Positions 16,762 to 40,740 are shown, numbered from the stretch's first letter. The stretch is 52,704 nt of DNA from Pseudomonadota bacterium (GCA_043805375.1 JAZDIA010000099.1:1-52704); one strand, 5' to 3'. Program-made: numbers and translations. Notes: generated by a model not told the origin, from the sequence alone.

Positions 16762-16807
16762 CAAAGAATTCGATATGCGCGGCGACTTAAATCGCGCCCC
16801 CGTTGTG

Positions 16808-17145
16808 GCAGAGTTGCGCTTGTTGCGCGGACGAGAAACCGTCCGCGCGGATCGCCGATCTTGTATAGAACCCCCGCACTGCCCTTGTTTTTATCCATAA
16901 CCGTGTTTTCTTTACGGATGTGCTTTTCATCCGTAAAGAAAACACGGTTGGCGCGCGCGAGCGCGCAATGTTCGCTAGCCGACATCGGCGGACGTCGGAG
17001 GATACATCGAGCAATGGCGCTGGAACTTGCGCGGACGGCGACCCGTCCGCGCGTTGTCTTTATTCTTATCCATAACCGTGTCCACGGTTGGCGCGCGCAG
17101 CGCGCAAGTCCGCCGATGGAACTAAGACGCCGTATATAACGCCGC
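16808..17145 (+). repeat. Composite multi-hairpin repeat, locus A: one full unit plus one collapsed unit in tandem, between the convergent dnaJ and cysS
   Basis: Shares modules and linkers with 26317-26551 and 40537-40740. 21-bp perfect stem at 16899-16919/16929-16949. The second unit has hairpins at 17029-17052 and 17074-17089. Confidence 0.85.
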
Positions 17146-20924: not shown

Positions 20925-20993
20925 TTTAAGTGAAGACCAGCGCCGGCGCCATGCAAGCGGTAGCCCTCATTTCAGAAAAATGGCGAGCGCATC

Positions 20994-26291: not shown

Positions 26292-26316
26292 TTACGAATC
26301 TAGCGTTGACATAATT

Positions 26317-26551
26317 GGAATTGCGATGTTGCGCGGACGAGAAACCGTCCGCGCGGATCGCCGATTGCGCACGGACGAAAAGACGTCCGTACGCAATCGG
26401 CGATCTTGTATAAAAACAACCCCAAGCCGTTGTTGCCATAACCGTGATTTTGGTACGGATGCGCGTTTCGTCCGTACCAAAATCACGGTTGGCGCGCGTA
26501 GCGCGCAATGCCTGTTACTCGCATGCGACAGTACTTAGGATGCCGTATATA
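26317..26551 (+). repeat. Composite multi-hairpin repeat, locus B (most complete copy), between accD and folC
   Basis: Hairpins at 26331-26354 (9 bp), 26356-26405 (22 bp, 1 mismatch), 26415-26434 (6 bp), 26440-26490 (20 bp perfect) and 26489-26508 (GC palindrome). Homologous to loci A and C. Confidence 0.9.
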
Positions 26552-26557
26552 GTGTGC

Positions 26558-31698: not shown

Positions 31699-34425
31699 TC
31701 AGTCCTGGGCCGAGAGCATGGTCTGCGCTTGTTGCTGCTGGGCCGCGTCGCCCTCGTTCAGCACTTCCTTTAGGAGTTCGCGCGCCCCGTCCTTGTCGCC
31801 CATCTCCTGGTAGGCTTTGGCCAGGTCGAGCTTGGTTGCCACCTCCTGCCAGCGTGCATCAGCGGGTGCGGCTTCGGCGCCCGGTGCGCCCAGATCCAGA
31901 CTGATCGAGGACAGGTCAATCGGCGCTGCCGGCGCTTCTTCCTTTTGCGTTTGAAGACTCACGTTGAAATCGAAATCGATACCACCGCCGCCCTCGGCGG
32001 ATCCGGCCGGCGCGGTTGGCGCTGCCGGCGCTTCTTGCTTCTGCGCCGGAAGATCCAGGTTGAAATCGAAATCGATGCCATCGCTGCCTTCGGCGGGTCC
32101 GGCCGACGCCGCCGCAGTGACGATCGGAAGCTCGCCGGGCGCGTGCGCCTGCTCGGTTTTCGCCGCGTCGCCGGCCGCGGGCAGTTCGAAATCAAAATCT
32201 ACGGACGCGGCCGCCTCAGGGACCCCGAGCGCCTGGGCGTCCAGGCTCGGCGTGCCGCCGGCAGCGACTTCGGGAGGTTTCTCGCCGCCGCCCAGATCGA
32301 GATCGAGATCGAAACCGAGATCGGCCGTGACATCGGTAGCGGGTGCAGTCCCACTATCGGGTGCAATACCGGGCTGCGCGCCGGCTTCAGCAGGTGAGCT
32401 CAAACCCAGATCAAAATCCAAACCAGCGAACGCGGCCGGCTCCTGCACGCCAGCATCCAGCCCAATAGCCGGCGCCGCCGCAGCGGCGACTTCAGCGGCG
32501 GAAAGAACCTGGGTATCGGTGGCGCGAGGAGTTTCGCCCGCTGCAGTCTTGCCGCCATAGAGCGGATTTTTGGGGTCAAGTTGCAAGCCCAAAGCGACCG
32601 CTTTTCCCCACTCGGTCCCGGCGCCGCCAGTGGCGGCCTGGAGTTCGACCGCTACGGCTTCGAATGCCTTGGCATCCTTGCGGCCGGCGTAGATTTCCAG
32701 CAATTTAATGCGAATTGCCTGTCGCGAAGGATCCTTCGCCAGCGCCTCCTTGAGAATTTCCTCTGCCTGTGCGTCGCGGCCGTACGCCATGTAGACATCG
32801 GCTTCTGCAATCGGATCGACTTCCCCGGTGTCGATAGCCACTGCTGCCCCGCCCCGGCTGAAATCGCCTTGGATTTCGACGGGACCGGTATCGACCCTGT
32901 CGCGGCCAGAAGCGCCAAACACGGAGTCGGTCGCCAGACCCGGCGCTCCCATTACGCCGCTCTCGGTTTTCTGCAAGGTCTTCTTGCGCCGCCAGGCGTA
33001 ATAACCATAACCGCCGAACAAGAGCAGCAGAAAACCGCCGCCGCCGTAAAGGGCCAGTTCGTTACCGAGAATTTCGTCGACCAAACCGGGCTCCGGTGGA
33101 GGCGGTGGAGGCGTCACAACCTTGGACGCCGCTTTAGGCGCTGGCTTGGCGGGCTCGCCGGCTCTAGCGGGTTCGCCTGCCTTAGCAACAACGGTGGCCT
33201 TGGCAAGCTCAGGCGCCTTCGCCGCAGCCGCATCTTTGGCCACTTCCGGCGCCTTCGCCGGTTCTGCGACTTTGGCCGCGCCCGCCTTGGCGGCTTGCTG
33301 TTGCAATAGGGCCCCAGACTGGCTTTTCAGCTCGAGCAGCTTCTGCAATTCCTGCACGTTCTTCTCTAGCATCGCGATGCGCTCATTCGCATCTTTGATC
33401 GCTTTGTCCTTGGCGAACAAGTCTTCCCGCAGCCCCTGCGCGCTACGGCTTGCGCCGGGCTTGCCCGGCTCTTCCGCCTTGGAAAGCCTAAGCTGGTCTC
33501 CGGTATCCATTGCCACCGCGGGTTTGTCTTCGACCTTCGCGGTGATCTTGCCGCTCGCGCTCCGGCGGAGCGAATCGGCTCGTTCCGGCGCAGCCGCAAC
33601 CGCCGCAGCCAGGTTGCGGCGGTATTCGTTGAAATCGGCAACTTGCGCGATCAGCAAGCGCGTCGCCTCGGACTGGTCTACCGATGCCGCCGCGTCCTTG
33701 TCTGGAATATTGAGAATTTTGCCGGCACGCAGGCGGTTCATGTTGTTGCCGTCGAATGCGTCGGTATTGCTGCGATACAGTGCCAGCAGCATTTGCTGCA
33801 AGCTGACGTCATACGATCTATTGGCGTTGGCAATCTTTACCAGCGTATCGCCGCGCTTCACTTGGTAGGTGCTGGCAGCCTTGGGTGCCGCGGGCTCAAG
33901 CGGCTTGTCCATGCCCGGCACGCGGGGGCGCAATTCTGGTTGCTTCGGCACCTCAACGGACATGATCACCGGCGCTGCACTCTCCGCCGGCGCGGCCACC
34001 GCGGGTGCCGGCTGGGGCGGTTTGTATTCGGGAGGGTCGAGCAGGAAGGTATACTCACGCACGAGCCGGCCGCCAGCCCAGTCCAGTTGCACCAACAGAT
34101 CGAGGAACGGTTCGTTCATCGGCTGCGCCGAACTGAGGACTATGACATGACGGTCCTCGCCGCGCTGCTCGAGGCTGAATCTGACCGACAGCAGCGCGCC
34201 GCTGTACTCGATGTTGGCTTGCCGAAACGCCTCTGCAGATGGCAGTTGCACGCTGAGGCTGTCCGCTTCACCCTTTTGCATCGAGACCAATTCGATCTCA
34301 GCGTTCAAGGGTTGTCCCAAGCCGGAAAACACAGTCAGCTTACCGAGCCCCGCAGCAACCGCTAGTGACGGCAGCAATAGAAATGCCAGGGCCACCGCAG
34401 TTGTTTTTATGACGGATTTACCCAC
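31699..34425 (-). CDS. fimV: FimV-like peptidoglycan-binding motility/scaffold protein (GTG start)
   Basis: Signal peptide, LysM-like segment (YQVKRGDTLVKIANA...), mid TM helix, acidic DFDF-repeat region, C-terminal TPR-like motif (LDLAKAYQEMGDKDGARELLKEV). Confidence 0.8.
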   Translation of the reverse strand: MGKSVIKTTAVALAFLLLPSLAVAAGLGKLTVFSGLGQPLNAEIELVSMQKGEADSLSVQLPSAEAFRQANIEYSGALLSVRFSLEQRGEDRHVIVLSSAQPMNEPFLDLLVQLDWAGGRLVREYTFLLDPPEYKPPQPAPAVAAPAESAAPVIMSVEVPKQPELRPRVPGMDKPLEPAAPKAASTYQVKRGDTLVKIANANRSYDVSLQQMLLALYRSNTDAFDGNNMNRLRAGKILNIPDKDAAASVDQSEATRLLIAQVADFNEYRRNLAAAVAAAPERADSLRRSASGKITAKVEDKPAVAMDTGDQLRLSKAEEPGKPGASRSAQGLREDLFAKDKAIKDANERIAMLEKNVQELQKLLELKSQSGALLQQQAAKAGAAKVAEPAKAPEVAKDAAAAKAPELAKATVVAKAGEPARAGEPAKPAPKAASKVVTPPPPPPEPGLVDEILGNELALYGGGGFLLLLFGGYGYYAWRRKKTLQKTESGVMGAPGLATDSVFGASGRDRVDTGPVEIQGDFSRGGAAVAIDTGEVDPIAEADVYMAYGRDAQAEEILKEALAKDPSRQAIRIKLLEIYAGRKDAKAFEAVAVELQAATGGAGTEWGKAVALGLQLDPKNPLYGGKTAAGETPRATDTQVLSAAEVAAAAAPAIGLDAGVQEPAAFAGLDFDLGLSSPAEAGAQPGIAPDSGTAPATDVTADLGFDLDLDLGGGEKPPEVAAGGTPSLDAQALGVPEAAASVDFDFELPAAGDAAKTEQAHAPGELPIVTAAASAGPAEGSDGIDFDFNLDLPAQKQEAPAAPTAPAGSAEGGGGIDFDFNVSLQTQKEEAPAAPIDLSSISLDLGAPGAEAAPADARWQEVATKLDLAKAYQEMGDKDGARELLKEVLNEGDAAQQQQAQTMLSAQD
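31923..32110. repeat. 96-bp in-frame tandem duplication in the acidic C-terminal part of fimV, plus shorter degenerate relatives upstream
   Basis: GCGCTGCCGGCGCTTCTT...GTTGAAATCGAAATCGAT recurs with period 96 (31923 and 32019). Encodes the GIDFDFN... 32-aa repeats. Confidence 0.85.
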
Positions 34426-40460: not shown

Positions 40461-40536
40461 AATGAGAATCTCGGCTGCGGCAGCGCAAAGCTCAAACGTT
40501 CATTCTACATGGCGCAGCGCAAGCGCCACCTTTCTG

Positions 40537-40740
40537 CAGAGTTGCTATGTTGCACGAACGAGAAGCCGTCTGTACGCAATCGGCGATCTCGTACAAAACC
40601 ACCACGCCGTGTTTGGTGTTAACCATAACCGTGTTTTCTGAACGGATGCGCTTTTCATCCGTTCGGAAAACACGGTTGGCGCGCGCAGCGCGCAAACCCG
40701 CTGCCGACAAACGACGGTAATTCAAGCGCCGTATACGCCG
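40537..40740 (+). repeat. Composite multi-hairpin repeat, locus C, in a divergent intergenic region
   Basis: 21-bp stem at 40628-40648/40658-40678 (one G.T), then TTGGCGCGCGCAGCGCGCAA and the terminal GCCGTATA. Same orientation as loci A and B. Confidence 0.85.

Follow-up and report, generated by a model that had tools for sequence, protein, structure and literature searches.

A hairpin with compensated stem changes is one module of a miniature repeat element in uncultured groundwater Burkholderiales

Three hairpins in a 52,704-nt stretch of DNA from a Pseudomonadota bacterium (the window) raise the question of what keeps the two arms of a long stem complementary while the stem itself changes from copy to copy. 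The first-pass annotation, made from the sequence of the window, had proposed that the differences among the three copies (A, B, and C) are mirrored between the arms, and each left-arm change is indeed complemented in the right arm. The positions given there for copies A and B are exact, and those given for copy C were one base too high (Table 1). The arms of copy A are 22 nt long and 100% complementary, the stem of copy B has 20 Watson-Crick pairs and a T.G pair adjoining the loop, and copy C has a single T.G pair at stem position 13. The stem variant of copy B is also present in its orthologous copy at another locus (L066). The pattern that defines the hairpin, AACCGTGNTTTNNNNACGGA, has 6 matches against 0.05 expected by chance. 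The hairpin, which we call HP3, has a fourth copy in the window that had been overlooked. This short HP3 lies in the second of two tandemly arrayed units and is directly followed by the same GC-rich flank as the long copies. All three long copies are intergenic between genes confirmed by Pfam: copy A lies between the stops of dnaJ (+) and cysS (-), copy B is flanked by the stop of accD and the start of folC, with both genes on the minus strand, and copy C is flanked by two gene starts, those of an MFS transporter gene (-) and of a spermidine-synthase-like gene (+). Because the three sites are intergenic, the ORF-track peptides that the first-pass annotation had compared are irrelevant; they are no real products, and a coding explanation of the hairpins is ruled out.

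Table 1. Repeat elements and hairpins in the window, with scores of the covariance model of HP3 and HP4
Feature	Position	Strand	Description	Covariance model (bits)
Element A	16774-17136	+	Two-unit array with both termini	
Element A, first unit			5' TIR 16774-16796, HP1 16825-16848, HP3, HP4 16950-16968, then linker	
HP3 copy A	16899-16949	+	22-bp stem, 7-nt loop, AACCGTGTTTTCTTTACGGATG / CATCCGTAAAGAAAACACGGTT	98.6
Element A, second unit			HP1 17029-17052, short HP3, HP4 17090-17107, 3' TIR 17120-17136	
Short HP3	17074-17089	+	Basal 7 bp only, AACCGTG-TC-CACGGTT; inner 37 nt absent	48.1 (17066-17109)
Element B	26316-26549	+	Without 5' TIR; HP1 26331-26354, HP2 26356-26405	
HP2 of element B	26356-26405	+	22-bp, GATCGCCGATTGCGCACGGACG-AAAAGA-CGTCCGTACGCAATCGGCGATC; apex homologous to HP3, inverted	
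Element B, right part			Box GATCTTGTATAAAA 26402-26415, HP3, HP4 26491-26508, 3' terminal module 26533-26549	
HP3 copy B	26440-26490	+	Stem variant A...TGGT / ACCA...T	93.9
Element C	40511-40735	+	5' limit approximate; single HP1/HP2-like hairpin 40552-40575	
Element C, right part			Box 40585-40598, HP3, HP4 40678-40695, 3' terminal module 40719-40735	
HP3 copy C	40627-40677	+	Stem variant CTGA / TCGG, one T.G	101.5

Further copies were collected from one genome per species with a pattern that covers the right flank only (CACGGTTGGCGCGCG N1-4 GCGCGCAA), so that the search imposed nothing on the left arm or on the inner part of the right arm. The scan found at least 115 loci, and those listed all belong to metagenome-assembled genomes (MAGs) of uncultured Burkholderiales or Betaproteobacteria from groundwater, lakes, and soils. 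Among the matches listed, which number 127, 123 have sufficient upstream sequence; 110 of these 123 copies contain the long hairpin, with a perfect 21-bp stem in 58 and one mismatch in 37, and in about 13 the long hairpin is lost or damaged. Loss or truncation in these copies and in the short HP3 fits the instability of palindromes. In the alignment of the 110 copies, 97.9% of the stem cells are paired; shuffling gives 90.6%, and sliding the partner column gives 34-42%. Two-sided changes are found at 11 of the 22 pairs and involve 180 cells, compared with 47.6 cells after shuffling. None of 500 shuffles equals any of the pairing measures, a significance that is overstated because the copies are a mixture of paralogues and orthologues and are non-independent. 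RNAalifold, a check suggested in the first-pass annotation and run independently of these statistics, recovers the same helix from the 110 copies together with a short GC hairpin (HP4).

The variation in the stem clusters at positions 8, 12, 13, 15, and 16, counted from the base, and the basal 7 bp seemed invariant in part because of the search pattern. The copies found with a covariance model built from the alignment are free of that constraint; in these copies the basal 7 bp also covary, the variants being AACCTTG/CAAGGTT, AACCGCG/CGCGGTT, AACCCTG/CAGGGTT, AACCGGG/CCCGGTT, AACCATG/CATGGTT, and AACCGTA/TACGGTT. Comparing arm with arm and copy with copy, as had also been suggested, gives a mismatch of 0.57 per 14 positions within a copy and of 3.0-3.1 between copies, indicating that the arms of one copy co-evolve. 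Covariation at freely varying positions requires base pairing and not identical half-sites, and we therefore ruled out that the hairpin is read as the operator of a dimeric protein.

The most direct record of how the stem changes comes from 23 pairs of loci in different MAGs whose flanking genes are 76-94% identical and which, because they share these flanking genes, are taken as orthologous insertions. At these loci, 31 stem pairs have changed on both sides with Watson-Crick pairing in both states (21 transition-type and 10 transversion-type changes), counts that include non-independent events because the locus pairs overlap phylogenetically. Independently changing arms would give about 5 two-sided pair changes, few of them pairing. 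One-sided changes number 21, and their unpaired states are G.T or T.G in 15 cases, C.A in 3, and others in 3. The per-site divergence is 21% in the loop and 12.9% in the stem. The change from T:A to A:T at stem position 10 is seen once, in L084 compared with its ortholog L022; stem variants with a single occurrence cannot have come from another sampled copy. A 1-nt insertion is mirrored in both arms in L032 and L081. In L114 (6835-6913), the apex and loop of HP3 are inverted, GGATAAGAAACGCATCC being the reverse complement of the common GGATGCGCTTCTTATCC at 16 of 17 positions, and the loop is in the normal orientation in the orthologous copy in L055 (1779-1857). The double changes at orthologous loci, the covariation in 110 copies, the agreement of arms within a copy, and the intergenic sites support the constraint first proposed for this hairpin, which acts at the level of pairing and not of coding.

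The element of which HP3 forms a module is a non-coding miniature repeat that occurs in many copies in uncultured groundwater Burkholderiales and was previously undescribed. The first-pass annotation had recognized the paired stem changes correctly, and it had not seen the enclosing element, its second long hairpin (HP2), or its repetition across the clade. A complete single unit is about 270-280 bp long, starts with TATACGYGGCGACTTRAATCGCG, and ends with ATTTAAGACGCCGTATA. The ends are imperfect terminal inverted repeats (TIRs) of about 25 bp, TATACG...CGTATA; aligning the consensus built from 20 5' ends with the reverse-complemented 29 3' ends leaves two small gaps and gives agreement at 22 of about 26 aligned positions. 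The 13 elements in which both ends were found are 235-440 bp long. TA precedes TACG in 9 of these 13 elements and follows CGTA in 12, and at the sites compared the empty site has diverged too far or the filled copy has been truncated; the TA flanks may represent a target duplication or may just belong to the inverted repeat. Within the 3' terminal module, at 26525-26553 of the window, lies an outward-facing promoter-like site (GCGACA, 17-nt spacer, TATAGT; 9/12), which in element B is directed into the antisense strand of accD. Common variant forms of the element are tandem arrays, in which the units are joined by a conserved linker, and truncated units.

The modules of a unit are arranged in the order HP1, HP2, spacer, HP3, and HP4, so that HP2 is in the left half of the element and HP3 is in the right half. 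HP1 is a 9-bp GC hairpin, HP2 is a 22-bp hairpin (GATCGYCGATTGCGCRCGGATG-AAAAGCA-CATCCGYGCGCAATCGRCGATC), and HP4 has the form GGCGCGCG-NN-GCGCGC. Compensated variation is also plentiful in HP2, as seen in 58 copies. In apex and loop, HP2 is the reverse complement of HP3. Each long hairpin, read on its own strand, has a motif in its 5' flank (TTTTATCCAT for HP3 and TTTTATACAA for HP2) and is followed by a GC hairpin, so that each half-element reads TTTTAT(C/A)CA(T/A), 22-bp hairpin, short GC hairpin, and terminus, with the own-strand apex of the 22-bp hairpin being G-Y-R-CGGATG / YGCTTTT / CATCCG-Y-R-C. The covariance model of HP3 and HP4 matches the opposite strand of HP1 and HP2 with 50-70 bits (59.6 bits on the minus strand of the window at 26327-26413), which shows that the element is a large imperfect inverted duplication of one half-element. 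In the window, the 5' flank of HP3 (16889-16898, 26434-26439, and 40617-40626) has the conserved motif TTATCCAT(A). This motif is identical at 8 of 9 positions to the DnaA-box consensus, TTATCCACA, and its HP2 counterpart, TTATACAAG, is a poorer match to that consensus.

The mismatched states in the two hairpins have a polarity. HP3 has an overall excess of G.T over A.C on the plus strand (40 versus 12). At positions 15/16, the plus strand of HP3 has 24 G.T or T.G and 3 C.A, and that of HP2 has 30 A.C or C.A and 2 G.T; these opposite counts mean that the wobble is always on the hairpin's own strand. Outside positions 15/16, the asymmetry is not significant (16 versus 9 in HP3 and 21 versus 20 in HP2), and the polarity could therefore have been inherited as a fixed property of the apex, in which case it would not signal strand-specific selection still in progress. 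Where host transcription runs antisense to the element, the mismatched states remain G.T on the element's plus strand (15:2), which corresponds to A.C in the RNA. The first-pass annotation had noted that the exceptional G.T pair of copy C would be legal in RNA. As a hint of RNA, this pair loses its force with a polarity that is concentrated at two stem positions, reversed in HP2, and independent of the direction of host transcription, and we dropped wobble polarity as proof of an RNA since the 40:12 excess comes almost wholly from positions 15/16.

The family is dispersed in intergenic spacers of an uncultured Burkholderiales clade, with 4 copies in the 52.7 kb of the window. Among the matches listed, both neighbors could be classified for 87 copies, and 33 of these lie in convergent spacers, 49 in co-directional spacers, and 5 in divergent spacers; 82 of the 87 are downstream of at least one gene end. 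In the co-directional contexts, 20 copies are sense and 29 are antisense to transcription. The element thus avoids promoter-side (divergent) spacers and has no orientation preference relative to transcription. Across loci, its orientation is weakly associated with GC skew (74 versus 53, p about 0.02, from non-independent loci). In the window, GC skew is negative in 9 of the 10 5-kb bins, and all four copies have the same orientation, on the C-rich strand. A search of plasmids and viral contigs for the element gave no match.

Insertion of the element is polymorphic. The dnaJ-cysS spacer that holds element A is empty and about 35 nt long in L117 (2268-2310), the closest relative at this site among the matches listed (DnaJ 91% identical), and in a more distant relative, L121 (3613-3900), the element is inserted there the other way round and its HP3 has decayed. 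The same spacer in L120 (2974-3110) contains an unrelated palindromic repeat (GTCATTCCGAGCGCAGCGAGGAATCTGC...). Another orthologous site is filled in L005 and empty in L068 and L047. The junctions are truncated or diverged in the comparisons of L005 with L068 and L047 and of L016 with L097, and the empty site of L117 is diverged at the junction. Other spacers of the window also differ from their counterparts. The spacer at 20925-20964 is 39 nt long, and at this place L057 (4069-4841) has an extra cyclophilin-like gene and a copy of the element. At 740-791 there is a perfect 22-bp hairpin (TCTCCTGATTTTGCGCGTTGCG / CGCAACGCGCAAAATCAGGAGA) with an 8-nt loop that is unique in the window and the loci compared, and the orthologous spacer in L051 holds a two-unit array of the repeat element instead. 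The window also contains two 92-nt direct repeats (31922-32013 and 32018-32109; 96 nt from start to start and 85% identical) inside a likely ORF (31774-32397).

The element is classified as a new family within the MITE/REP-like kind. It has TIRs and is small, non-coding, multi-copy, and insertion-polymorphic (empty, filled, and in the opposite orientation), as is characteristic of MITEs. With Correia/NEMIS, RUP, and ERIC MITEs it shares a small, non-coding, intergenic nature, TIRs of about 25 bp that start with TATA..., and TA ends, and Correia-type MITEs likewise have many copies, filled and empty orthologous sites, and transcripts in which long stem-loops are predicted; Correia elements, moreover, reside in Neisseria, another betaproteobacterium (PMC2229807). 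However, the element is larger than Correia-type MITEs (about 275 bp versus 100-170 bp) and GC-rich instead of AT-rich, its long hairpins are internal local palindromes and do not arise from TIR-TIR pairing, and its internal units form tandem duplications. No match in sequence to Correia/NEMIS, RUP, or ERIC was detected. No cognate IS was identified within the window and the at least 115 loci, where no TIR pair is more than 450 bp apart. The resemblance to REP, BIME, and REPIN sequences lies in polar imperfect palindromes, inverted pairs, mosaic clusters, location at gene 3' ends, and persistence at orthologous positions. As in the inverted doublets of REPINs, the two hairpins have a common apex in inverted orientation, and the covariance model of one matches the opposite strand of the other. 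Unlike REP and REPIN sequences, the element lacks a GTAG guide tetranucleotide (GTAG is sporadic and confined to the HP4 loop) and has TIRs, TA flanks, and 22-bp stems. We rejected attC sites as a further candidate: CCATAAC and GTTGGCG fit neither RYYYAAC nor GTTRRRY, there is no pairing beyond AACCGTG/CACGGTT, and the copies are dispersed between housekeeping genes and not in cassette arrays. A known RNA family was ruled out by Rfam searches in both modes, which gave only tRNA-Val at gathering thresholds and only sub-threshold, miRNA-like hairpin noise in E-value mode.

The identity of the element is secure, and the way in which its stems are kept paired we infer from the pattern of changes. 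We lean, with slightly more belief than doubt, toward a requirement that each long hairpin folds back as a single strand on its own strand, most likely as DNA in the manner of REP or IS200-type ends and in preference to RNA. The constraint would then be that one strand can fold back on itself, whatever the sequence of the stem; the apex, loop, and 5' flank motif would be read as sequence, and the stem would only have to pair. Mutations in the stem would either be lost or be matched on the opposite arm, in some cases by a second mutation through G.T intermediates and in others at once, by template switching between the arms, and the paired copies would persist. Selection for an intrastrand fold of defined polarity, as at REP or IS200-type ends that are recognized as folded single-stranded DNA (PMC8266576), accounts for the points that template switching leaves open, and we therefore favor a combination of the two. 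The reason for the pairing constraint we likewise infer, given that a DDE-type MITE with TIRs would need no internal hairpins. Decayed or lost hairpins, as in L121 and in about 13 of the 123 copies among the matches listed, count against this reading. No mobilizing enzyme was found in the 0.85 Mb of the window and the at least 115 loci, in a search that was neither sensitive nor genome-wide.

Mutation without any selected fold would be an alternative source of the paired stems. Quasipalindrome correction by template switching can keep stems paired neutrally, since a single intrastrand or interstrand event during replication either undoes a mutation in an arm or transfers it to the opposite arm. 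Copying between the arms of quasipalindromes is an established mutational process in E. coli (PMC7202029), and template switching has been put forward as an origin of compensatory changes in hairpins (PMC8794818). One-step double changes, mirrored indels, and loop inversion are features of this process (PMC8794818, PMC7202029), and all have counterparts here: the inverted loop of L114 beside the normal loop of its ortholog L055 is a signature of template switching (PMC8794818), the 1-nt insertions of L032 and L081 are mirrored, and the 10 transversion-type changes among the 31 in-place double changes lack a wobble intermediate. However, quasipalindrome correction is a mutational process and not an element family, and it leaves unexplained why the apex, loop, and flank motif are conserved and why the G.T polarity depends on orientation. 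More than 100 copies from more than 10 MAG species hardly vary in the apex, the loop, the 5' motif TTTTATNCAN, or most stem positions, while at orthologous sites the loops diverge by 21%. Strand-symmetric mutation with blind correction would also give equal numbers of the one-sided states, whereas 15 are G.T or T.G and 3 are C.A, and the polarity at positions 15/16 flips with the orientation of the hairpin. We thus consider purely neutral correction unlikely, although template switching may well be a source of the double changes without being the whole explanation. Hairpin-templated repair, the rival that the first-pass annotation had raised against its own proposal, gains some support from the L114 inversion and leaves the G.T excess and the conserved apex unexplained.

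Two further readings place the fold in an RNA or assign it to a known transposase. A perfect stem of at least 20 bp is a plausible RNase III substrate, and pairing could be selected in RNA if the 22-bp hairpin, transcribed with adjacent mRNAs or from the element itself, were a cis-acting 3'-end stabilizer or an RNase III site of the kind known from REP and Correia elements. The location of 82 of the 87 classified copies downstream of a gene end, a fold z-score of about -10 on both strands, and the tolerance of G.T states are consistent with such a role, for which Correia elements offer a precedent as RNase III sites (PMC2229807), and divergent transcription of the two halves out of the central spacer (TGTATAAAA / TGGATAAAA) would in principle agree with the reversed polarity, but no convincing promoter is present. 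Several observations make this role improbable in our view: co-directional copies are antisense as well as sense (29 and 20), antisense contexts keep G.T on the plus strand of the element at 15:2, a single read-through RNA cannot explain both HP2 and HP3 because their polarities are opposite, and Rfam has no family above noise. The hairpins themselves were ruled out as terminators or sigma-70 promoters, since no T-run follows the stem on either strand and their -10-like motifs have no T at position 6 and no -35 element. The alternative that HP2 and HP3 are classical REPs, moved by a single-copy RAYT as a BIME- or REPIN-like doublet, finds support in the two inverted hairpins with a common core, the tandem arrays and singlet remnants, the copies at gene 3' ends, and a polarity specific to each hairpin's own strand. 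Bertels and Rainey described compensatory changes as "common" in REPINs (PMC3116915), and REP is recognized by RAYT as strand-specific, folded ssDNA (PMC8266576). However, the flanks of HP2 and HP3 have no conserved GTAG on the 5' side, TIRs of about 25 bp and TA flanks are absent from REP and REPINs, the 22-bp stems exceed those of typical REPs, and no RayT-like ORF was found in the window and the at least 115 loci. A tblastn search with E. coli RayT, a single distant query, against these 0.85 Mb (about 1-2% of each genome) gave nothing better than E = 0.5. A classical REP/REPIN system is therefore very unlikely, and own-strand fold-back, most likely of DNA, remains the reading that we prefer.

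Structure-preserving change of stems is well documented in bacterial palindromic repeats, and the result for this hairpin is thus solid and unsurprising. What it adds for uncultured groundwater Burkholderiales is a repeat family with its anatomy, comprising TIRs, two inverted long hairpins, and two GC hairpins; in annotation, the elements should be masked, and neither ORFs nor novel sRNAs should be called on them. The family also provides an unusually clean natural data set on the pairing of long palindromes, in which over 100 paralogous copies and about 20 pairs of orthologs show in-place compensation, wobble intermediates, mirrored indels, and one loop inversion. It can be used to weigh selection for the fold against template-switch correction and involves no new kind of biology. 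A more speculative possibility, which we regard as doubtful, is that the two inverted hairpins are substrates of an unrecognized single-strand-specific system, either a non-RAYT HUH or tyrosine enzyme with a guide motif different from GTAG or a pair of divergent small RNAs arising at the center of the element, as suggested by the own-strand TTTTATNCAN before each hairpin and by G.T on that strand only. If true, such a system would make the family a new REP-like class and not an ordinary DDE-mobilized MITE.
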